A stretch of 64,000 bases of DNA from an uncultured Bacilli bacterium (lineage in GTDB: Bacteria > Bacillota_I > Bacilli_A > RF39 > UBA660). Made by a program: the position numbers and the translations under genes. Under the pieces are notes generated by a model. It ran no database searches, was not told where the DNA came from, and saw only the letters and a list, made by a program, of their open reading frames with translations. Positions 622 through 10,249 of this stretch are shown here, in pieces. Location of the stretch: the NCBI GenBank assembly GCA_947626055.1, contig CANQQP010000001.1:10672-74671 (forward strand). The letters are read 5' to 3'. The number at the start of each line of letters is the position of its first letter. Position 1 is the stretch's first letter.

Positions 622-1635
622 ATGGGGTATACTAATTTTGGAAGTGATAGTATGCAAAAAAAGTTATCTAAATTGATATTTTTATGTATTTCTCTTTTAA
701 TCTTTCCTTTAGGAGTTTTAGGATATTCTGATTATATAATTCCTGGGGGAGAAAATGTAGGAATAGAGATAAATAGTAAAGGCATAATGGTTATTGGCTT
801 TTACAAAGTAAATGGTAAATTAAATAAGGGTACGCCTAATATTAAAGTTGGTGATGAAATTGTCAAAGTAGGTAATAAAATTGTTAGTACAACTGAAGAT
901 TTAATTGCCGCTATTGAAACAGAACGCAATGACCAAAAAGTCAAATTAACCGTTTTACGTGATGATAAAGAAAAAGAAATAAACTTAGATTTAATAGAAT
1001 CAGATGGAATTTTTAAAACAGGTTTATATGTTAAAGATAATATTACAGGAATTGGAACTTTAACATATATTGATCCTCAAACAAATATTTATGGAGCTTT
1101 GGGTCATCAAGTGGCTGAAAGTAATTCTAATACAACTATTGAGGTAAAAAGTGGGTTAATATTCCGTAGTTTAGTAACTAGTATCGATAAAAGTGCTAGT
1201 GGTAATCCTGGTGGTAAAAATGCTAAATTAGATTATAGTACGAAATATGGTAATATTTTACAAAATACCCAATATGGGATATTTGGAAATTATACGGCTG
1301 GGTTGCCTAAAAAGACTTTACTTAAAGTAGCCACACCCGAGGAAATTGAAATTGGTAAAGCCTATATTTATACGGTTTTAAATAATGAAGAAATAGAAAA
1401 ATTTGAAATAAAAATTAATAAAATTGATAAAGAAAATGAAATAAAAAATATTTATTTTGAGGTGACAGATGCAAACTTACTAGAAAAAACTGGTGGGGTA
1501 GTCCAAGGAATGAGCGGGTCGCCAATTGTCCAAAATAATAAAATAATCGGGGGAGTAACTCATGTTATAGTTTCTAATCCTACGACGGGAATGGGTATTT
1601 TCATTACGACTATGCTTAAAGAAGGAGAAAAATAA
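622..1635 (+). CDS. spoIVB: Stage IV sporulation protein B (SpoIVB, peptidase S55 with PDZ domain)
   Basis: N-terminal signal/TM segment, PDZ-like region and a C-terminal GMSGSPI catalytic serine motif typical of SpoIVB. An alternative start at 652 (MQKK) is possible. Confidence 0.8.
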   Translation: MGYTNFGSDSMQKKLSKLIFLCISLLIFPLGVLGYSDYIIPGGENVGIEINSKGIMVIGFYKVNGKLNKGTPNIKVGDEIVKVGNKIVSTTEDLIAAIETERNDQKVKLTVLRDDKEKEINLDLIESDGIFKTGLYVKDNITGIGTLTYIDPQTNIYGALGHQVAESNSNTTIEVKSGLIFRSLVTSIDKSASGNPGGKNAKLDYSTKYGNILQNTQYGIFGNYTAGLPKKTLLKVATPEEIEIGKAYIYTVLNNEEIEKFEIKINKIDKENEIKNIYFEVTDANLLEKTGGVVQGMSGSPIVQNNKIIGGVTHVIVSNPTTGMGIFITTMLKEGEK

Positions 1636-1660: not shown

Positions 1661-3037
1661 AATTTGCTGATTTTTATTGATTAAATATTTTTGTAAAATA
1701 CTCATAAAGTGATTATTAATTGCATTTTGATCTTCTTTCGTATCCGCTTCGATTCGATAAGTTAGGCAAGGGGTAGTGTTACTAGCCCGAAGTAGGACCC
1801 AACCATGCTCATAGAAAGCTTTGATTCCATCTATTTCTAATAATTTATAATTTAATTTTTCATACTCAATTTTTACTTCATTAACAATTGAAAATTTTTC
1901 TTTTTCATCTACTTTAATTTTAATTTCAGGAGTAATTAAATACTTGGGAACATCTTCAAACATATCGCTTAAATTAAGAGTAGCTTTACTTAATATTTCT
2001 ATGATTCTTAAACCGTTATAGATTCCGGAATCAAATCCGGGCCATCTGTCTTTAAAAAATAAATGCCCAGAATATTCACCCCCAAACGGTAAATTATCAC
2101 TATTTACTTTAGACCTGGTGTAAGAAGCACCGGTTCGGCAAACAACGGGGTTGCCGTTTAATTTAACAATTTCTTCTTCTAATGCTTTTGAACATTTAAC
2201 ATCATATAAAAATGTTTTATTGGTGACATTGTTAATAATATCGCGAATTATTAAAATCATTAGATATTCAGTAGAGACAATTTCCCCTAAATTGTTGACT
2301 ATTCCTAAACGATCCCCATCGCCATCAAAGGCTACACCAAGATCAGCTTTAACTTCTTTGACTTTTTCTTGTAACATAACTAAATTTTCTGCCACGTTAG
2401 GGTCGGGATGATGGTTAGGAAAATTAGGATCACTAACATCATTAATCATGATAATATCTAAATTTGGAAATAAAGAATAAATATCTTTGGCAAATAAAGA
2501 TGTGGTGCCATTACCTGGGTCAATTACTACTTTTAAAGGGCGGTTGCCCATTTTAATATTATCTTTAATTAACGAAATATAATAGGGTAGAATATTAAAA
2601 TCTCTTACTGTTCCTTGACCTTGTAAAAAATTTCCTTTTAAAGTAAAATCGCGAAAGTCATAAATTTGTTTACCGCGAGCCATTCCCAAATTATCAAAAG
2701 TAAATTTGAAGCCATTATATTCTTTAGGATTGTGACTGGCTGTAACCATTAGGCCAAAAATAATATTAGTTTTAAGACATGCATAAGCAAACATTGGTGT
2801 CGTACAAAGGCCTAAATTAACTACGTCAACACCGCTATCAACTAAACCTTTAATTAAATTTTTACTAAGAGAAGGACTAGACAAACGATTATCTCGACCT
2901 ACTACACAGACATTTTGATTAAAATTTTGTTTGATATAACTCCCATAACTTTGACCAATAATATAAGCATCGTTATCCGTTAAATCTTCGTTATAAATTC
3001 CTCTTATGTCATATTCTCTAAATATTTCTTTATTCAT
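1658..3037 (-). CDS. Alpha-D-phosphohexomutase (phosphoglucomutase/phosphomannomutase family)
   Basis: 459 aa. Contains the TASHNP phosphoserine active-site motif and GDGDRL metal-binding loop characteristic of the PGM/PMM family. Confidence 0.8.
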   Translation of the reverse strand: MNKEIFREYDIRGIYNEDLTDNDAYIIGQSYGSYIKQNFNQNVCVVGRDNRLSSPSLSKNLIKGLVDSGVDVVNLGLCTTPMFAYACLKTNIIFGLMVTASHNPKEYNGFKFTFDNLGMARGKQIYDFRDFTLKGNFLQGQGTVRDFNILPYYISLIKDNIKMGNRPLKVVIDPGNGTTSLFAKDIYSLFPNLDIIMINDVSDPNFPNHHPDPNVAENLVMLQEKVKEVKADLGVAFDGDGDRLGIVNNLGEIVSTEYLMILIIRDIINNVTNKTFLYDVKCSKALEEEIVKLNGNPVVCRTGASYTRSKVNSDNLPFGGEYSGHLFFKDRWPGFDSGIYNGLRIIEILSKATLNLSDMFEDVPKYLITPEIKIKVDEKEKFSIVNEVKIEYEKLNYKLLEIDGIKAFYEHGWVLLRASNTTPCLTYRIEADTKEDQNAINNHFMSILQKYLINKNQQI

Positions 3038-3192
3038 GTATTTTCACCATTTTAAATATACCATTTTTTTAGAATCTAATCTATTGTTTTAACTATGTTT
3101 ACGATGATATGGCAAAATTAGACACTTTTCCCAAGCAGGTATTTTTGCAAATTTTAAAAAAAGGTCGTATAATTATCTTGAGCGTGATACTT

Positions 3193-4353
3193 ATGATTAA
3201 AAAAATTCTTATTCCTTATGCCACTTATGGCAATGGACATAAAGTAGTAGCTAACTATATAAAAGAGAGATTTGAAAAGAAAAATCCGGATATTGAAATC
3301 GAGACTTTAGATATCCTAGATTATGCGACGCCTTTTATGAGAAAAGTAAGCAAAGGTTTATTTGAAAAAACCATGTTTGCTAAAAATCCTATTATATGGG
3401 AGTTAATTTATCGTTTTTATAATCATAAATTTCGTTCTTTAGGCATGCGTAAGCTATGTTATCATTTATTTGATAATGCCAAAATGCGAGCTAAAATGGA
3501 AGAATACAATCCGGATATTATTATATCCACGCATTTTTTTGCTAGTATTTTAGCCTCTAAATATCTCAAAAATAATCTTATTCAAAGTAAAATTTATACG
3601 GTCATAACTGATTATGAGGTTCATGCAGTTTGGACTAAGTCTTTTAAATATGAGGAAGCAATTATTGTTAGCAATAAAGAAATGAGTAAAGAACTAATTG
3701 ATAAAGGCGTTCCTAAAAATAAAATTAAAGTTTTTGGTATTCCTTTATCTGATGCTTTTTGTGCGGAATTAGATGTTAAAACTTGTAAAAAGAAATTGAA
3801 ATTAGATAATGGAAGATTAACAATTTTATTTTTTGGGGGTGGCAATAATTCGAGTGTATCTTTTCCTTTCTTAGAGCATTTAATTCGCGAGAAATATGAT
3901 TTCAATATAATTTTTATTGCCGGTAAAAATAATGATCTTAAAAAGCAAGTTAATGACCTTGTAAAAAAAGAAGGTACTAAAAATATTCAGGTATTGGGTT
4001 TTGTTGATGGCGTTAAAGAATATATGACAGCTAGTGACTTAGTAATAACAAAACCTGGTGGTCTTACTGTTACCGAATGTTTATTTTTAAAAAAACCAAT
4101 GCTTTTAATTAATAAAAGTGCGGGACAAGAAAAAGCTAATTATAAGTATTTAGTAAAAAATAAATTTGCTTTAAAAGCTAGTAATCTTAAGGAATTCGGG
4201 ACTTATTTAACCAAAATTGCTAAAAATCCGCAAATTTTAAAAAAGATGAGCGATAATATGGATCAGGATAAAAAGAAGACGGCTATTGATGAGTTATATA
4301 GTTTGGTAATGAAAGAGCATAAATTTAAAGTTATAAATAAGAGGAAAGTTTGA
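3193..4353 (+). CDS. Monogalactosyl/diglucosyl-diacylglycerol synthase (UgtP-like GT28 glycosyltransferase)
   Basis: An N-terminus of the form MIKKILI..ATYGNGH aligns with the UgtP/MGDG synthase start. A C-terminal GT28 region (ITKPGGLT.TE) is present. The ORF is open from 3109 but the likely start is 3193. Confidence 0.75.
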   Translation: MIKKILIPYATYGNGHKVVANYIKERFEKKNPDIEIETLDILDYATPFMRKVSKGLFEKTMFAKNPIIWELIYRFYNHKFRSLGMRKLCYHLFDNAKMRAKMEEYNPDIIISTHFFASILASKYLKNNLIQSKIYTVITDYEVHAVWTKSFKYEEAIIVSNKEMSKELIDKGVPKNKIKVFGIPLSDAFCAELDVKTCKKKLKLDNGRLTILFFGGGNNSSVSFPFLEHLIREKYDFNIIFIAGKNNDLKKQVNDLVKKEGTKNIQVLGFVDGVKEYMTASDLVITKPGGLTVTECLFLKKPMLLINKSAGQEKANYKYLVKNKFALKASNLKEFGTYLTKIAKNPQILKKMSDNMDQDKKKTAIDELYSLVMKEHKFKVINKRKV

Positions 4354-4378
4354 CAATTTGGTCTTAAAATAATATAAT
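4350..4378 (+). promoter_or_regulatory. Consensus sigma-A promoter (TTGACA-17-TATAAT) driving the T-box leader and fic-ileS
   Basis: TTGACA at 4350-4355, a 17-nt spacer, TATAAT at 4373-4378. It overlaps the stop codon of the upstream glycosyltransferase gene. Confidence 0.5.
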
Positions 4379-4384
4379 AAAAAT

Positions 4385-4609
4385 CGTTAAAAGCAATTGA
4401 CAAAGACGTTAATATATTTAGTTTAAAGAGAACTGATGGGTGGTGCAAATCAGTAAACAAAATATATTAAAGATCACTTTGGATGCGTTATATTGAAAAA
4501 AGTAAATATAAACGGGTTACTTACGTTACAAGTATTAAGTGTATGATTAAAATCATAAATTAAGGTGGTACCACGGGTATAACTCGTCCTTTAGTTTATG
4601 ATTTTTTTT
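4385..4609 (+). promoter_or_regulatory. T-box riboswitch leader, putative Ile specifier (AUC at 4473-4475)
   Basis: Stem-I distal-loop-like AGAGA..CTGATGGGTGGTGCAAATCAG. T-box motif aattaAGGTGGTACCacgg at 4558-4577. This forms an antiterminator of helix A1 aagg/cctt, a UGGUACC bulge and helix A2 acggg/ctcgt. An extended lower helix atcataaattaagg/cctttagtttatgat followed by T9 (4548-4612) acts as the terminator. Confidence 0.6.
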
Positions 4610-4623
4610 TAAGGAGGTAGATA

Positions 4624-5256
4624 ATGAATAATTTAGTTGATGAAAATATGTCAATTTCCGAAATTAGGAATATTGTTAGTCATAGAATATATGAATTGAT
4701 TAACAATAATGCAGCCGTTTCTTTTAATATTGATCAGTTAAGAAAAATTCATTACTATCTATTTCATGGTTTATATCAAAACGCTGGTGAATTACGGAAA
4801 GATAACTTATTTAAGAAAGAAAAAATTATTGATGATGAAACAGTTTTATATGTTAACTATCAAGATATCGAAAATTATTTAAAGTATGATTTAGAAACGG
4901 AAAAAAAATATAATTACCAGGGTAAGACTACAGAAGAAATTTTAAAACACTTCGCTAAATTTACTGCTAATATTTGGCAGGCTCATCCTTTTTTGGATGG
5001 CAATACGCGAACAGTTGCTGTATTTATGATGATTTATTTTAAACAACTCGGTTTTCAACCGGATAATGAAGTTTTAAAAAATAATTTTAGCTATTTTCGA
5101 AATGCTTTAGTTTTAAGTAATTGCTTAGGAGAAAATATGCTCCCGCCTTATCAATATTTAATTAAATTTTATGAAAATGTCTTATTTTCCCAAAATAATG
5201 AATTAGATATAAAAGAAATGTTTGAATTTAATGAAAATGAAAGAAGGAAAAGATAA
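4624..5256 (+). CDS. Fic/Doc family protein (variant Fic motif HPFLDGNTRT)
   Basis: 210 aa with the Fic core motif HPFxDGN(T)R. Strong RBS AAGGAGG upstream. The stop overlaps the ileS start (TAATG). Confidence 0.75.
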   Translation: MNNLVDENMSISEIRNIVSHRIYELINNNAAVSFNIDQLRKIHYYLFHGLYQNAGELRKDNLFKKEKIIDDETVLYVNYQDIENYLKYDLETEKKYNYQGKTTEEILKHFAKFTANIWQAHPFLDGNTRTVAVFMMIYFKQLGFQPDNEVLKNNFSYFRNALVLSNCLGENMLPPYQYLIKFYENVLFSQNNELDIKEMFEFNENERRKR

Positions 5257-8200
5257 TGAAAAATTTTAAAGAATTAGATAAAAGACCTGTTAGTGAGGTA
5301 GAAGAAAGTATTTTAGCTTCTTGGCAAAGCGTAAATGCTATGCACGATGAACAAGTGAAAATCCATGAAAATGATAAAACGTTTGTCTTTTATGATGGAC
5401 CAGCTTTTGCTAATGGTTTTCCGGGATTACATCACATGGTATCTAAAAATTTAAAAGATACAATTACGAAATACCATGTTATGAATGGTCATAAAGTAAT
5501 CCGTAAAATAGGTTGGGATACCCATGGTTTGCCTATTGAAAATCATGTCGAGAAAAAATTAGGTATTTCTTCTAAAAAGGAAATTGAAGCTTTGGGAGTC
5601 GATAAATTTAATGAGGAATGTCGTAAATCAGTTCGCGAAAACGAAAGTGCTTTTTCCGATTTAACGAGTAAAATGGGTCAATTTTTTGATATAGAGCATC
5701 CTTACTTAACCTATAAAAATGAATATATTGAAACCGAGTGGTGGATTTTAAAAGAAATGTTTCAAAAAGGAATGTTTTATGAAGGAACACGTGTTGTCCC
5801 TTATTGTCCGCATTGTGGAACGGGTCTGGCCACCCATGAAGTAGCCCAAAATTATCAAACAGATACTGCTATAACAGTTTATGTACCATTTAAGAAAAAA
5901 AATGAAGATGTTTATTTCTTAGTCTGGACTACAACACCATGGACTTTGATTGCTAATGTGGCTTTATGTGTTAATCCTGGTGAAGAATACGCTTTGGTGG
6001 AATCAAAAGATACTAAATTTATTTTAGCTGCCAAGCTTGTTAATAAAGTATTAGGTGATGAAGCTAAAATAATCGAAACTTTTAAAGGAAAAGATTTAGA
6101 ATATCAAGAATATGAGCAATTAATTCCTTCTTTTGAAGTTGATAAAAAAGCCTTTTATGTAACTTGTGATAATTATGTTACGATGGAAGATGGAACCGGT
6201 ATAGTTCATATTGCTCCGGCTTTTGGTGAAGATGATGCTAATGTAGGAACAGCTTATGATTTACCATACTTAAATCCGGTTGGTAAAGATGGTTGTTATG
6301 TAGGTGGTTTATGGGACAAGAAATTTGTTCATGATGTCAATGAAGAAATAGTTACTTATTTGAAAGAAAATGGCAAATTATTTAAACGCCAAAAAGTAGC
6401 TCATGAATATCCTCATTGCTGGCGTTGTGACACTCCATTAATTTATTATTCCATGCCTAGTTACTATATTAAAGTCTCAGAAATGCGTGATGATTTAGTC
6501 AAAGCAAATTCCCAAGTAAATTGGTATCCGGCTTATGTTGGAGAAAAACGCTTTGCTAATTGGCTTGCTAACGCGCGAGATTGGAATGTTTCTCGTAGTC
6601 GTTATTGGGGTAGTCCTATCCCTTATTGGAAGTGTGAATGTGGCCATGCTGAAATGATTGGATCAATGGCCGAATTAAAAGAAAAAGCAATAGAACCAAT
6701 TGGTGATGATTTTGATTTACATAAACCATATATTGATAATGTTCATCTTAAATGTGCCAAATGTGGAAAGGAAATGACTCGTATACCGGATGTATTAGAT
6801 TGTTGGTTTGATTCTGGTTCTATGCCTTTTGCTCAATATCATTATCCTTTTGAAAATAAAGAATTATGGGAAAGCCAATTTCCAGCTGACTTTATCTGTG
6901 AAGGTATTGATCAAACAAGAGGTTGGTTTTACACTTTAATGGTTATTTCCACCTTTTTAAAAGGCTGTTCACCATTTAAAAACGTCTTAGTAAATGATTT
7001 ACTTTTAGATAGTGAAGGCAAGAAAATGAGTAAATCTCGCGGCAATATCGTCGAACCATTTACAACTATCAAAGAATATGGTGCTGATACCGTAAGATTT
7101 TATCTTCCTTATGTTTCACCTGTATGGACGCCTTTAAAATTTGATATTTCCGGCTTAAAAGAAGTTTATTCGAAATTCTTTAACCCTTTAAAAAATTCTT
7201 ATAGTTTCTTTGCAACATATGCTAATATTGATAAAATAGATACCGACAAATGCCAAGTGGCTTATGAAAAAAGAGAAGAAATAGATAAATGGCTTTTATC
7301 AAAATATAATCAACTTGTAAAAGATGTTCGTACTTCTTTTGCTGAATATGATCTAAATAAAATGGTGCACTATTTAGCGGACTTTGTTTCCGAAGATTTA
7401 TCTAACTGGTATATTAGACGTAATCGTAATCGTTTTTGGGGTAATGAACTTAATGAAAATAAAAAGAGTGTATATATTACGACTTATGAAGTATTAGTTG
7501 GTTTAGCCAAATTAATTGCCCCAATAACACCTTTCATATCAGAAGAATTGTATCGTAATTTAACGAATGAAAAATCAGTGCATTTAAGTGATTATCCAAC
7601 CGTTAATGAAAAATTAATCAATAAAGAAATTGAAGAAAAAATGGATTTAGTTCGTAATTTAATTAGTATAGGTCGTATGGCTAGAGAAGAAGCTAAGATA
7701 AAAGTACGTCAACCAATTAGTGAAGTTATTATTGATGGTAAAAATGAAACAATTTTACAAGATTTAGTTAATTTAATCGAAGAAGAGTTAAATGTTAAAA
7801 AGGTTGTTTTTGAAAAAGATCTTTCTAAATATATGAATTTTTCAATCAAACCGAATTTTAAAGTTGCGGGGCCTATATTTGGTGGCAATATTAAAGAGTT
7901 TGCAACTATTTTAAATAATTATAGTGAAGATGATATTAAGGATTTACAAAATGGTAAGACACCTACAATAGAAATTAATGGGGAAAAGTTTACTATTTCT
8001 TTGGATATGGTAGATGTTCGAATTAACTCCAAAGAGGGATTTGATGTTGGTATGGAAAATAATAACTTTATTATTTTAAATACTAATTTAACTAAAGATT
8101 TAATTGAAGAGGGAATTGCGCGTGAATTTATTTCCAAAGTTCAAAATTTACGTAAATTAAATGGCTTAGAAATTGAAAATCGTATCGAGTTAGAATTTAA

Positions 8201-8357
8201 TGCTCAAGATAATATCAAAGAAGCGCTTTTAAACAATGAAGAATATATAAAAGGAGAGACTTTAGCGACGATTTTTAGATATATTCCTAATGATTGCTCA
8301 GAAAAAATTGATATTAATGGCAATGCTGCTAGTATAAATCTAAAAAAGGTTGCTTAA
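5256..8357 (+). CDS. ileS: Isoleucyl-tRNA synthetase
   Basis: 1033 aa. Contains a HMG-type HIGH motif region, KMSKS, an editing domain and a C-terminal zinc-binding CxxC pair. It is the type with a short C-terminus. Confidence 0.95.
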   Translation: MKNFKELDKRPVSEVEESILASWQSVNAMHDEQVKIHENDKTFVFYDGPAFANGFPGLHHMVSKNLKDTITKYHVMNGHKVIRKIGWDTHGLPIENHVEKKLGISSKKEIEALGVDKFNEECRKSVRENESAFSDLTSKMGQFFDIEHPYLTYKNEYIETEWWILKEMFQKGMFYEGTRVVPYCPHCGTGLATHEVAQNYQTDTAITVYVPFKKKNEDVYFLVWTTTPWTLIANVALCVNPGEEYALVESKDTKFILAAKLVNKVLGDEAKIIETFKGKDLEYQEYEQLIPSFEVDKKAFYVTCDNYVTMEDGTGIVHIAPAFGEDDANVGTAYDLPYLNPVGKDGCYVGGLWDKKFVHDVNEEIVTYLKENGKLFKRQKVAHEYPHCWRCDTPLIYYSMPSYYIKVSEMRDDLVKANSQVNWYPAYVGEKRFANWLANARDWNVSRSRYWGSPIPYWKCECGHAEMIGSMAELKEKAIEPIGDDFDLHKPYIDNVHLKCAKCGKEMTRIPDVLDCWFDSGSMPFAQYHYPFENKELWESQFPADFICEGIDQTRGWFYTLMVISTFLKGCSPFKNVLVNDLLLDSEGKKMSKSRGNIVEPFTTIKEYGADTVRFYLPYVSPVWTPLKFDISGLKEVYSKFFNPLKNSYSFFATYANIDKIDTDKCQVAYEKREEIDKWLLSKYNQLVKDVRTSFAEYDLNKMVHYLADFVSEDLSNWYIRRNRNRFWGNELNENKKSVYITTYEVLVGLAKLIAPITPFISEELYRNLTNEKSVHLSDYPTVNEKLINKEIEEKMDLVRNLISIGRMAREEAKIKVRQPISEVIIDGKNETILQDLVNLIEEELNVKKVVFEKDLSKYMNFSIKPNFKVAGPIFGGNIKEFATILNNYSEDDIKDLQNGKTPTIEINGEKFTISLDMVDVRINSKEGFDVGMENNNFIILNTNLTKDLIEEGIAREFISKVQNLRKLNGLEIENRIELEFNAQDNIKEALLNNEEYIKGETLATIFRYIPNDCSEKIDINGNAASINLKKVA

Positions 8358-8365
8358 AATAAAAC

Positions 8366-8842
8366 ATGACTAAAGTAATTCACCCTTTAAAACCTATTTA
8401 TGATGAGAACTCAAAAATATTAATTTTGGGTTCTTTTCCTTCTGTTTATTCACGTGAAAAATGCTTTTACTATGCCCATCCGCAAAATCGCTTTTGGCTG
8501 GTTTTAGAAAATATTTTTAATGAAAAAATAACGGATAAAGAAAGTTTTTTACTTAAACATCATTTAGCCTTATGGGATGTTATCGCTTCATGTGAAATTA
8601 AGGGTTCTGCTGATGCTAGTATTAAAAATGTCAAAGTTAACGATATAGGGAGTTTAATAGAAAAGACAAACATTCAAAAAATTTTAATAAATGGGCAAAA
8701 AGCTTATAATTTATACTGTAAATATTTTCAAAATACAATTCCCATTAAAGTTGTAAGTTTACCTTCAACCTCGCCAGCCAATGCCACTTATAAATTAGAT
8801 GATTTAATTAAGATATATAACGATAATATTATTGACAATTAG
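8366..8842 (+). CDS. Uracil-DNA glycosylase superfamily protein (Mug/TDG-like mismatch-specific glycosylase)
   Basis: 158 aa. YAHPQNRFW resembles the Mug FAHPANRFW motif. The N-terminal ILILGSFPS lies in place of the GINPG motif. Confidence 0.65.
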   Translation: MTKVIHPLKPIYDENSKILILGSFPSVYSREKCFYYAHPQNRFWLVLENIFNEKITDKESFLLKHHLALWDVIASCEIKGSADASIKNVKVNDIGSLIEKTNIQKILINGQKAYNLYCKYFQNTIPIKVVSLPSTSPANATYKLDDLIKIYNDNIIDN

Positions 8843-8893
8843 TAAAAATGATGCTAGGATAAAGATGTATTAAATGAAACAACTTTCATATAA
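8832..8893 (+). promoter_or_regulatory. Putative promoter region for the toxI-like repeat RNA
   Basis: TTGACA at 8832-8837, a 17-nt spacer and an extended -10 TGcTAGGAT. A second TATAAT hexamer lies at 8888-8893, immediately before the first repeat. Confidence 0.35.
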
Positions 8894-8897
8894 TACT

Positions 8898-9004
8898 AAA
8901 AAAGTCGGAATACCCTTGCCAAAGTAGGGAATAAAAAAAGTGGAATACCCTTGCCAAAGTAGGGAGCTAAAAAAGTGGAATACCCTTGCCAAAGTAGGGA
9001 AATT
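8898..9004 (+). ncRNA. ToxI/antiQ-like type III antitoxin RNA: about 3.3 tandem 35-nt direct repeats
   Basis: Three contiguous 35-nt repeats (aaaaaagtNggaatacccttgccaaagtagggaNNN). The period is 35, measured from ggaa at 8907, 8942 and 8977. A partial fourth unit follows. The arrangement is promoter, repeats, terminator, toxN, as in AbiQ/antiQ. Confidence 0.75.
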
Positions 9005-9013
9005 AAAAAAGAT

Positions 9014-9047
9014 ACTAGAGTTTAGGCTTTACTCTAGTTTTAATTTC
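9014..9047 (+). terminator. Intrinsic terminator between the repeat RNA and the toxin gene (attenuator typical of type III TA loci)
   Basis: 7-bp stem actagag/ctctagt with an 11-nt loop, followed by TTTTAATTT. Confidence 0.6.
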
Positions 9048-9091
9048 AAAACATTAGCGAACAATATTTCGCAAAGAAAGAAGGCAACAAA

Positions 9092-9589
9092 ATGAAATCT
9101 TTAAAGTTATATTTAATTGATGATGATTATATTAAGTTTTTAAGAAAGTTTGACAAAAAAGTACCATATAATAAAGTCCAAAAAAGGCCATACGTAGGTG
9201 TAGTTTTCTATTATAATAAGATTAAATATTTTGCTCCTTTAACTTCGCCAAAACCCAAACACTTAAAAATAAACAGCAATGCAGTAGATATATTTAAGAT
9301 TAATCAAGGCCAGCTAGGTGTAGTTAATATAAATAATATGATACCTGTTACCTCGGATGTTTTAACCGAATTATTACCCATAATTGAAGATGATAAATAT
9401 AGAGAATTAGTTATTAATCAATTAACTTATTTAAATGATAATAAAAGAAAATTAATTAAAAAAGTTCACGTATTTTACAATTTATATTTAAAAAATCATT
9501 TAAGCCCAAATCAAAAAACTAGATGTTGCGATTTTAAAATATTGGAGAAATACTATAAAAATTTTGAAAAAGAAGAGGTAAAACAATAA
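9092..9589 (+). CDS. ToxN/AbiQ family type III toxin endoribonuclease
   Basis: 165 aa. Conserved ToxN/AbiQ signatures are present: DKKVP, YVGVV, YFAPLTSPKPKH, LGVVNINNMIPV and a C-terminal CDFKILE. An RBS-like AAGAAGG lies 10 nt upstream. Confidence 0.85.
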   Translation: MKSLKLYLIDDDYIKFLRKFDKKVPYNKVQKRPYVGVVFYYNKIKYFAPLTSPKPKHLKINSNAVDIFKINQGQLGVVNINNMIPVTSDVLTELLPIIEDDKYRELVINQLTYLNDNKRKLIKKVHVFYNLYLKNHLSPNQKTRCCDFKILEKYYKNFEKEEVKQ

Positions 9590-9658
9590 AATATTTTTCC
9601 CTTATTTGCAATTTAGTAATTTTTTTAATATAATGTATTACACATAGGTGATTTTTAT

Positions 9659-10249
9659 ATGAAAATAGATACGGTTGAATTAAGCAATACAGCGGTTAGA
9701 GTTAGTCAATATCCTACTGATAACAAGCCGGAATTTTTGCTAGTTGGCCGAAGTAATGTTGGAAAGAGTAGTTTTATAAACGCATTAATAAATCGTAAAA
9801 ACTATGCAAGAACTAGTAGTAAGCCTGGTAAAACGCAAACCTTAAACTTCTATTCAATTAATAATAGTTTTTACTTAGTTGATGTGCCCGGATATGGTTT
9901 TGCCACCGTAAGTAAAGAAAAACAAAAAAAATTTGGTTTAATGATTGAAGAATATTTAAAAACTCGCAAATCTTTAAAACAAGTTTTTATGCTTATTGAT
10001 TATCGACATAAACCTAGCGAAGATGATTATTTGATGTATAATTACTTAAAATATTATAATCTTCCGGTAACAATTGTGGCTACTAAATATGATAAAGTAA
10101 ATAAAACAGCGAGAGTTAAACAAGATAAAATGATTATGGAAGCAATGGATATTAAAGAGGGAGATAATTTGATTTTCTTTTCGTCTATAAGTAAAAAAGG
10201 ACGAGATGAAGTATATAAGATTATAGAAAGTTATTTAGAAATCGTCTAA
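9659..10249 (+). CDS. engB: Ribosome biogenesis GTPase EngB/YsxC (YihA)
   Basis: 196 aa. G1 motif GRSNVGKSS, G3 DVPGYG and NK.D-type G4 (TKYDK). Confidence 0.9.
   Translation: MKIDTVELSNTAVRVSQYPTDNKPEFLLVGRSNVGKSSFINALINRKNYARTSSKPGKTQTLNFYSINNSFYLVDVPGYGFATVSKEKQKKFGLMIEEYLKTRKSLKQVFMLIDYRHKPSEDDYLMYNYLKYYNLPVTIVATKYDKVNKTARVKQDKMIMEAMDIKEGDNLIFFSSISKKGRDEVYKIIESYLEIV

Follow-up and report, generated by a model that had tools for sequence, protein, structure and literature searches.

Organization of the ileS locus

A stretch of 64,000 nucleotides from an uncultured Bacilli bacterium (NCBI GenBank assembly GCA_947626055.1, contig CANQQP010000001.1, positions 10,672 to 74,671 of the forward strand) was analyzed and is called the window below. 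The object of the analysis was an operon in which an isoleucine-specific T-box leader is followed by fic, a gene for a Fic-family protein of 210 amino acids (aa), and by ileS, the gene of a type-2 isoleucyl-tRNA synthetase (IleRS). T-box leaders control genes of aminoacyl-tRNA synthetases, amino-acid biosynthesis and transport. The T-box, the Fic fold and type-2 ileS (ileS2) are each known; a toxin-type Fic enzyme encoded by the first gene of a T-box operon, as read from the sequences of at least five species-level lineages, appears to be new. In the literature searched, no post-translational-modification enzyme of toxin ancestry heading a T-box operon was described, and nothing relevant was found on Fic together with T-box and ileS, or on PDC-S72, the candidate family to which the Fic protein belongs. 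To our knowledge, no fic partner has been described for ileS2. The features of the operon are collected in Table 1.

Table 1. Features of the T-box-fic-ileS operon (window coordinates)
Feature	Position	Strand	Basis
Sigma-70-type promoter TTGACA-17-TATAAT	4350..4378	+	12/12 consensus match
T-box leader: Stem I with specifier loop, Stem II region, Stem III, antiterminator	4388..4594	+	RF00230
Specifier codon AUC (Ile), followed by conserved purine A at 4476	4473..4475	+	covariance-model alignment position
Stem III UAUGAUU / AAUCAUA, flanked by AAGUG and AA motifs	4542..4557	+	covariance-model structure
Intrinsic terminator: extended helix 4549-4605 enclosing A1 and A2, then U9 at 4602-4610	4549..4610	+	minimum-energy fold
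Antiterminator: A1 AAGG 4562-4565 / CCUU 4588-4591; A2 ACGGG 4573-4577 / CUCGU 4583-4587	4562..4591	+	covariance-model alignment
Shine-Dalgarno sequence AAGGAGG of fic, 6 nt before ATG	4611..4617	+	read from sequence
fic, 210 aa, Fic2 / PDC-S72-type Fic domain without N-terminal module of about 75 aa	4624..5256	+	Pfam PF02661
Fic active-site motif HPFLDGNTRTVA (His121 to Ala132)	4984..5019	+	sequence
Shine-Dalgarno sequence GAAGGA of ileS, within last fic codons encoding the clade-specific ERRKR tail	5243..5248	+	sequence
ileS, type-2 isoleucyl-tRNA synthetase, 1033 aa	5256..8357	+	TIGR00392, 934 bits
DNA-deoxyinosine glycosylase (uracil-DNA glycosylase superfamily), start 8 nt after ileS stop	8366..8842	+	TIGR04274

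The original prediction, which was made from the sequence alone, had placed a Fic-family gene of 210 codons between leader and ileS, with its stop codon overlapping the ileS start, and both statements held: the open reading frame (ORF) was assigned to Pfam PF02661 (51.2 bits versus a cutoff of 24, E 2e-13), and its TAA shares 1 nt with the ileS ATG (TAATG, 5254-5258). The overlap of stop and start and the internal Shine-Dalgarno sequence of ileS are conserved in all fic loci. By this layout, fic and ileS would form a translationally coupled pair. The scan of the interval between fic and ileS gave only promoter-like matches of 9/12, at chance rate (44 found versus 40.6 expected), and no plus-strand terminator was found between the two genes; a second leader was likewise missing from the interval, in agreement with the earlier claim of a single transcription unit. 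Both genes are thus predicted to be co-transcribed from the T-box leader. The synthetase has the Pfam domains tRNA-synt_1, Anticodon_1 and, at its C-terminus, DUF5915.

Promoter, T-box leader and expression platform

The leader elements proposed earlier, namely a consensus promoter, a T-box with an AUC specifier, and an antiterminator nested in an extended terminator helix with T9, were all recovered. The promoter is the only 12/12 match within 3000-9700, and a perfect leader promoter is also present at the loci L004, L007, L020, L021 and L023, which belong to the fic clade and its nearest relatives. Scanning with Rfam assigned the leader to RF00230 with 125.4 bits (gathering score 93, E 2e-27) over the full model (positions 1-219 of 219), the single Rfam match across the whole 64 kb. 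The AUC triplet occupies the specifier position of the covariance model. ATC with the following A is constant in 83 of 83 homologous leaders while the adjoining positions vary, so the specificity for isoleucine is, as judged from the alignment, a conserved property of the leader. With an nhmmer profile of the leader, a homologous leader was found 5' of ileS in every related locus examined.

In the aminoacylation-sensing domain, the T-box bulge UGGUACC was located at 4566-4572 in the covariance-model alignment, together with the antiterminator helices A1 and A2; it is predicted to pair with the NCCA end of the tRNA. A cognate tRNA gene was sought for comparison of its discriminator base with the UGGU bulge, and no tRNA gene was found in the 64-kb window. 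Stem III is part of this domain and carries RRRNG...AA flanks (PMC7778990), which are present in the window leader as AAGUG and AA. At the 5' side of the promoter, the -35 hexamer TTGACA (4350-4355) includes the TGA stop codon (4351-4353) of the preceding gene, which encodes a glycosyltransferase similar to monogalactosyldiacylglycerol (MGDG) synthase; hence, no intergenic spacer separates that gene from the promoter of the ileS operon.

The minimum-energy fold of the terminator (-19.4 kcal/mol, z = -3.9) encloses A1, A2 and the UGGUACC bulge, and the 3' arm of Stem III doubles as the 5' arm of the terminator extension. Both helices were examined for covariation in an alignment of 38 related leaders with 500 shuffles. 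The terminator extension was paired in 86% and showed compensatory changes at 6 of 11 pairs, a score reached by none of the 500 shuffles, and slid registers of the extension gave a pairing of only 32-50%. For Stem III, 90% of the cells were paired and compensatory changes were found at four of the six pairs (0/500 shuffles reaching the score). Since Stem III and the terminator extension use one common strand, they are alternative helices, and both covary; the predicted terminator of the window would exclude Stem III rather than A1 and A2. The textbook T-box terminator re-pairs the 3' strand of the antiterminator with downstream sequence, whereas the terminator of the window is predicted to extend A1 by means of the 3' arm of Stem III. 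An expression platform that would trade Stem III, and not the antiterminator, against the terminator is, judged from these predicted structures, new as far as the literature searched shows.

Three expression platforms were observed among the homologous isoleucine leaders. The extension of A1 at the expense of the 3' arm of Stem III is represented by the window (4542-4610). A textbook terminator formed from the 3' strand of the antiterminator occurs at L046 (3561-3634), L078 (3369-3441) and L029 (3906-3979). At L024 (251-324) and L059 (3907-3980), the T-box bulge sequence GGUGGUACC is itself the partner of the 3' arm.

Sequence, family and predicted structure of the Fic protein

The canonical motif of AMPylating Fic enzymes, HxFx(D/E)GNGRxxR, is departed from in HPFLDGNTRTVA at two positions. 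The original prediction had noted Thr in place of the second Gly as a peculiarity that might alter activity; this replacement was confirmed, a further one of the final Arg by Ala was added, and both turned out to be shared by the whole family. H121, P122, F123, G126, N127, T128 and R129 are constant in 65 family members, as are the two departures and a downstream FRNALV motif. This constancy in 65 relatives argues that the departures define the family and are not degeneration; the motif HPFxxGNTRTxA is accordingly taken, from the alignment, as a family hallmark rather than local decay. The Fic2-type family sharing it counts about 690 cluster representatives with E values of 1e-30 or lower.

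The closest studied relative is Fic2 of Campylobacter fetus subsp. venerealis (BLASTP 38% identity, E 9e-35), in which His184 aligns with His121 of the window protein. Fic2 is toxic in E. coli, and toxicity is abolished by the H184A exchange (Sprenger et al. 2017, PMC5651007). It lowers the amount of 70S ribosomes, raises free 30S and 50S subunits, and is neutralized by its partner Fic1 (PMC5651007). On a C. fetus plasmid, the match to the window protein, which is this Fic2, is encoded by the second of two tandem fic genes that overlap by 1 bp.

A search with PADLOC returned PDC-S72, a candidate defense family only, with E 4e-49 over profile positions 80-268 of 377. Relatives of 260-380 aa with 40-50% identity are also encoded on 92 plasmids, and none of 89 loci with relatives of the window Fic had the gene next to ileS. 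The sequence comparisons identify the window protein as a shortened member of this family of plasmids and defense islands. Long forms of 276 aa were found at L016-L018 (5001-5831), L013-L015 (5001-5831) and L010-L012. Their contexts are a position directly upstream of brxA-brxB-brxC (bacteriophage exclusion, BREX), a DpnII-type restriction-modification (R-M) system with a Thoeris TIR gene, and GmrSD with IS605/TnpB. Many metagenomic relatives have 340-380 aa, some with an N-terminal winged helix of the MarR type.

A three-helix module of about 75-90 aa is present at the N-terminus of nearly all of the top 150 family representatives, Fic2 included; it folded as three confident helices in the predicted model of a long form. 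A search of PDB sequences with the module gave nothing relevant, and when folds were searched with the long-form model, matches were confined to the Fic core. A fused inhibitory domain of the VbhA type was considered for the module, but the Pfam VbhA model stayed below threshold (E 0.24 for one N-terminus), and 5 of 65 members matched it at E 1 or better (best 0.078).

Stand-alone short fic genes were found at L099 (885-1499) and L101 (615-1208; P0008, P0044), coding for 197-204 aa without the N-terminal module and with the C-terminus ...LF. They have a promoter-like sequence of their own and lie downstream of a gene similar to D-Ala-D-Ala carboxypeptidase genes; one comes from the same rabbit metagenome series. 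Among Fic genes outside the operon, these rare forms are closest to the ileS-linked clade and form its sister group, so the loss of the N-terminal module probably predates the capture by the ileS operon.

The AlphaFold2 model of the window protein had a mean predicted local distance difference test (pLDDT) value of 92.6 and a predicted template modeling (pTM) score of 0.91. Foldseek assigned probabilities of 1.0 to Bep8, VbhT, EcFicT, NmFic and EfFic. The closest folds were class I Fic toxins and Bartonella effectors (Bep8, VbhT, EcFicT and Fic-1) with template modeling (TM) scores of 0.60-0.67, and the best sequence match among solved structures was VbhT (E 1e-7). A C-terminal inhibitory helix as in class III was rejected, as no conserved (S/T)xxxE(G/N) motif was found in the clade; a non-conserved SNYYEG occurs in the L004 group. 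No antitoxin, small ORF, second Fic or Fic1-like partner was found beside fic or elsewhere in the 64-kb window. The gene is flanked by the T-box leader upstream and by ileS downstream, which is not the layout of a type II toxin-antitoxin system.

Distribution and origin of fic in the ileS operon

Eighty ileS loci were collected by look-ups of exact proteins and by an IleRS scan of species-representative genomes, with IleRS identities of 64-98%. They come from uncultured gut Bacilli (metagenome-assembled genomes from rabbit, goat, mouse and human). For 78 of them, the contig covers both the leader and the ileS start, and in about two-thirds of these the ileS ATG follows the leader at 11-78 nt. 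This is the canonical layout without an intervening gene, and the earlier statement that ileS normally comes first after its T-box was thereby borne out. That the insertion of fic is specific to one lineage was also supported: one clade has fic, and its relatives show the same leader directly before ileS.

Besides the window, fic lies between leader and ileS at L001, L019 and L022 (93-95% Fic identity to the window protein), at L020 (69%), at L102 (54%), and at L004/L005 and L007/L008 (53%). A T-box was matched in every fic-bearing locus that reaches far enough upstream. In a neighbor-joining tree of IleRS, the fic-bearing loci form one clade, in which L021 without fic is nested, and the next outgroup, L023, is free of fic. 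The ileS-linked Fic proteins are monophyletic in the tree of the Fic family and branch internally as in the IleRS tree. For the same genome pairs, synonymous divergence of fic and ileS was 0.73 versus 0.92, and 0.99 versus 0.84. Both trees and the matching divergence indicate that fic was inserted once in the ancestor of the clade, inherited vertically with ileS, and lost once (L021). For close pairs, the ratio of nonsynonymous to synonymous substitution rates (dN/dS) was 0.11-0.35 for fic and about 0.05 for ileS. These values suggest that fic is a functional gene under purifying selection with looser constraint than ileS. Architecture and origin of the T-box-fic-ileS operon are therefore regarded as very well supported.

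A metagenome scan with the alignment of the short clade detected no further ileS-linked loci; all 80 matches were at most 47% identical, and none lay beside ileS. Recent transfer of fic was considered, but composition gives no signal for it, as the G+C content at third codon positions (GC3) of fic, 0.19, equals that of its neighbors. A phage origin was also dismissed, with just one unannotated phage-like record matched.

In the lineage of L007 (6621-9710; also L008 and L009; NCBI GCA_947585915.1), only about the first 73 codons of the type-2 ileS are left. A complete type-1 IleRS gene (902 aa, TIGR00392 982 bits) follows some 150 nt past the truncated gene, and then come Transposase_mut and DDE transposase genes; the layout is the same in three assemblies. 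T-box leader and intact fic are still present upstream of the exchanged ileS1. No new strong promoter was found in L007, where the sole 12/12 match lies upstream of the leader.

Other genes between leader and ileS

At least eight unrelated types of cargo occupy the slot between leader and ileS in sister species. A CYTH-domain protein of about 180 aa (PF01928; similar to class IV adenylate cyclases, below cutoff) is encoded there in at least 12 species from at least four IleRS clades: L028, L032, L033, L035, L037, L073, L081, L085, L086, L088, L089 and L098 (at about 3450-4000 in most). Its stop codon overlaps the ileS ATG. Only the C-terminal half of a CYTH protein is left at L097 (3786-4004). 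A LOG/SLOG-like gene was found at L078 (3462-4004) and a Na/Ca exchanger gene at L058 (3025-3990). Cargo ORFs without a family match lie at L075 (3456-3986), L046 (3643-3999), L047 (3654-3998), L080 (348-1148), L043 (2252-3952) and L062 (2218-3986), the last two loci having multi-gene insertions of about 1.8 kb. The unassigned ORFs (114-496 aa) gave no Pfam, NCBIfam or PADLOC match, and the CYTH and LOG-like proteins remained below NCBIfam cutoffs.

Nearly all cargo ORFs end between -15 and +25 nt from the ileS ATG. Every one has a Shine-Dalgarno sequence just after the U-run of the terminator and carries that of ileS in its last codons. The tail ...EMEEKK of the CYTH protein, for example, has the coding sequence aatGGAGGagaagaaata; in a relative without cargo, ileS is preceded by aatGGAGGagaagaa. 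Likewise, the ERRxR tail is confined to ileS-linked Fic proteins because the last codons of fic carry the Shine-Dalgarno sequence of ileS. Since unrelated cargos share the overlap with ileS, translational coupling and T-box control would, on the evidence of these junctions, be properties of the slot and not of a Fic-IleRS pair. Recurrent capture of unrelated ORFs in such a leader-proximal slot, as these loci suggest it, is new as far as the literature searched shows. Direct repeats at cargo junctions resemble duplicated Shine-Dalgarno sequences and were not treated as recombination sites. The slot was also considered as a hot spot of defense genes; this was rejected, as the other cargos have no PADLOC matches.

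Possible function and alternative explanations

The reading preferred here, with a probability of roughly 0.4, is that a captured toxin-type Fic enzyme acts on translation at a dose set by the charging of tRNA-Ile. Uncharged tRNA-Ile would bind to the specifier and the UGGU bulge and stabilize Stem III and the antiterminator. Stabilized Stem III would keep its 3' arm from extending A1 into the terminator, RNA polymerase would read through, and Fic and IleRS would be made together when charging of tRNA-Ile is low. By means of His121, as in Fic2, Fic might then modify a component of the translation apparatus and lower the pool of joined ribosomes. Translation would be slowed to the extent that Ile-tRNA is short, and IleRS would meanwhile be replenished, the dose of Fic being set by a riboswitch rather than by an antitoxin. 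Doc phosphorylates EF-Tu. SoFic AMPylates EF-Tu in switch I (bioRxiv 10.64898/2026.07.09.737422), and the action of both enzymes on this factor provides precedents for translation as a target of Fic proteins. The preferred reading is further supported by the finding that fic is intact even where a type-1 ileS has replaced ileS2. Its parts are not equally firm: it is rather probable that the window Fic is catalytically active, and the physiology of a translation brake under T-box control is a tentative proposal about which we have considerable doubt.

Several observations weigh against this reading. The loss of fic in the nested species L021 indicates that the gene is dispensable. The slot is promiscuous, and position alone implies no link to isoleucine, to translation or to a Fic-IleRS partnership. 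Sequence identity to Fic2 is only 38%. The N-terminal three-helix module is missing from the ileS-linked clade, and activity or target of the window protein may differ from those of Fic2 without it. Constitutive production of a toxin in the amounts of a housekeeping operon, with neither antitoxin nor partner in 64 kb, argues for a Fic protein that is weakly toxic or not toxic in this host. With regard to the leader, both states of the window-type terminator contain A1, A2 and the bulge, and the way in which tRNA binding would block the terminator extension is one that we infer.

As the main alternative, fic may be an opportunistic cargo: the slot would give a promoterless ORF dependable expression, Fic would keep its role from mobile elements (for example, interfering with competing elements or abortive-infection defense), and control by tRNA-Ile charging would not be adaptive. 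This is possible, though we hold it to be rather unlikely. The variety of cargos, nearly all with stops abutting the ileS ATG, and the scatter of the CYTH cargo over at least four clades speak for it, as do the family's neighborhood to BREX, R-M, Thoeris and GmrSD systems, its 92 plasmids and its listing as PDC-S72. The loss in L021 and the occurrence, in the same gut communities, of short forms that stand alone under a promoter of their own point the same way. However, the position of fic was kept to near-saturated synonymous divergence and through the exchange of ileS2 for ileS1, the other cargos lack defense-family matches, so that the slot is no defense hot spot, and PDC-S72 is a candidate family of phage defense; the tolerance of a Fic2-type toxin at housekeeping expression would also be left unexplained. 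A direct partnership, in which Fic would modify IleRS, tRNA-Ile or an IleRS-bound intermediate and coupling would match the stoichiometry, draws on the 1-nt overlap and common regulation conserved in all fic loci and on the diverse protein targets of Fic enzymes in the literature. It is quite improbable, as the same Fic stayed in place when a very different type-1 enzyme replaced the type-2 IleRS, unrelated ORFs overlap ileS in the same way, Fic relatives adjoin ileS in 0 of 89 loci, and the studied homologue Fic2 affects ribosome subunits and not an aminoacyl-tRNA synthetase.

It was also considered that Fic might be an inactive remnant, its ORF being kept because the 3' end holds the ileS Shine-Dalgarno sequence and its translation aids initiation at ileS. 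The missing second Gly and last Arg of the AMPylation consensus, the missing N-terminal module, the constraint of the Shine-Dalgarno sequence on the ERRxR tail, and a dN/dS about four times that of ileS would fit such a remnant, yet the low dN/dS spans the whole ORF beyond the tail. Moreover, the His, Asp/Glu, Asn and Arg of the motif and about 30 further core positions are constant in the 65 members including the clade, Fic2 with the same motif shows His-dependent toxicity, and L021, which has lost fic, expresses ileS from a simple junction with the leader, so that translation of ileS does not depend on fic; a remnant of this kind is accordingly hard to credit. Hardly likely at all is a separate transcription of ileS from a promoter inside fic, by which the T-box would govern fic only, or the leader would control neither gene effectively. 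Weak 9/12 matches lie in fic at 5038-5067 and 5171-5199, and cryptic promoters form easily in AT-rich DNA, but matches of this quality occur at the chance rate given above, none has an extended -10 element, and the two genes overlap with no terminator between them. Furthermore, cargo-free relatives rely on the same leader for ileS, and the only 12/12 promoter of L007 is also upstream of the leader.

As an extension of the preferred reading, the riboswitch could have replaced the antitoxin, a Fic2-family enzyme without N-terminal module or partner having been domesticated as an isoleucine-specific translation brake and the slot being a site of gene capture. We regard this as speculative and improbable. 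The gap between T-box terminator and ileS may, as a capture slot, have repeatedly made promoterless mobile ORFs (Fic, CYTH, LOG-like and others) responsive to starvation.

Taken together, the anatomy of the locus is solid, and its physiology is a proposal. Should Fic be active, the locus would couple the charging of one tRNA to a covalent change in the translation machinery, and such control would differ in its logic from both the stringent response and toxin-antitoxin systems. The clade also offers a tractable handle on Fic2-type enzymes, namely a minimal core of 200-210 aa that cells evidently tolerate. With at least eight kinds of cargo found between homologous leaders and an abutting ileS, the slot represents a natural experiment in operon growth by ORF capture, and this variety cautions against inferring function from position alone.

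Neighboring genes

The neighbors of fic in the window are housekeeping genes (PGM, MGDG synthase, ileS, deoxyinosine glycosylase, EngB and Der), with no defense island. The deoxyinosine glycosylase (TIGR04274, 136 bits versus a cutoff of 80) is also encoded 3' of ileS in L001 and L004. No terminator was found between ileS and the glycosylase gene, which is probably the third gene of the operon on the same transcript. A terminator-like hairpin of 12 pairs lies inside the glycosylase coding region (8405-8435).

A complete type III toxin-antitoxin module (ToxIN) was located at 8897-9589 (+), 3.6 kb downstream of fic and separate from it. It consists of 3.2 tandem copies of the 35-nt repeat TAAAAAAGTGGAATACCCTTGCCAAAGTAGGGAAT at 8897-9011, a hairpin, and the ToxN gene at 9092-9589 (PF13958, E 5e-43), with a promoter-like site at 8832-8860. 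The module is missing from the 95%-identical relative L001, in which engB follows about 300 nt after the glycosylase gene; it is thus a strain-variable insertion. A SpoIVB-type peptidase (PF05580) is encoded at 622-1635 (+) and points to a spore-forming host. Several metagenome-assembled genomes of the lineage are labelled 'Tenericutes' or 'Mycoplasma', which makes this peptidase worth recording.

Comparison with known systems

The window leader resembles the T-box leaders of RF00230 (e.g. Bacillus subtilis tyrS, glyQS and ileS) in its match to the full model, in a specifier that fits the synthetase, in the UGGN bulge, in Stem III with RRRNG/AA flanks, and in the intrinsic terminator with U-run. 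Unlike in known T-box leaders, the first gene regulated is that of a Fic enzyme and not a synthetase, biosynthesis or transport gene. The synthetase itself agrees with the type-2 IleRS of Bacilli, including MupA and MupB, in size (1033 aa), DUF5915 C-terminus, strong similarity and T-box regulation. In contrast to these mupirocin-resistance proteins, it scored 854 and 835 against a cutoff of 1900. With scores so far below the cutoffs, it is a chromosomal housekeeping ileS2 and not a known resistance determinant.

With class I Fic toxins and Bartonella effectors (VbhT, EcFicT, Fic-1 and Bep8), the window Fic shares the absence of a built-in inhibitory helix. Those proteins have the canonical GNGRxxR and AMPylate GyrB/ParE or host GTPases, whereas the window motif reads GNTRTxA; the class I toxins are paired with a small antitoxin (VbhA, FicA or AntF), and none adjoins the window fic. 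The profile match to PDC-S72, a single-gene candidate family of phage defense, is strong. Its longer relatives (40-50% identity) lie beside BREX, R-M, Thoeris and GmrSD systems, whereas the ileS-linked clade is in no defense island. Doc and SoFic have in common with the window protein the Fic fold with a catalytic His, and in Doc a non-canonical motif goes along with a different chemistry. The similarity is weak (SoFic profile E 3e-4; Doc model below cutoff), and control is by antitoxin, dimerization or DNA binding in those systems and by a tRNA-sensing riboswitch upstream of the window fic.

C. fetus Fic2 comes closest. Its motif HPFREGNTRTIA and HPFLDGNTRTVA have the same non-canonical HPFxxGNTRTxA core, and both proteins lack the inhibitory (S/T)xxxE(G/N) motif and share FRNALV. 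Fic2, however, is longer (306 aa compared to 210 aa in the window protein) and has both an N-terminal module and a C-terminal extension. It is encoded on a pathogenicity island or plasmid directly after its neutralizing partner fic1, whereas the window fic is without a partner and stands behind a riboswitch in a chromosomal housekeeping operon.

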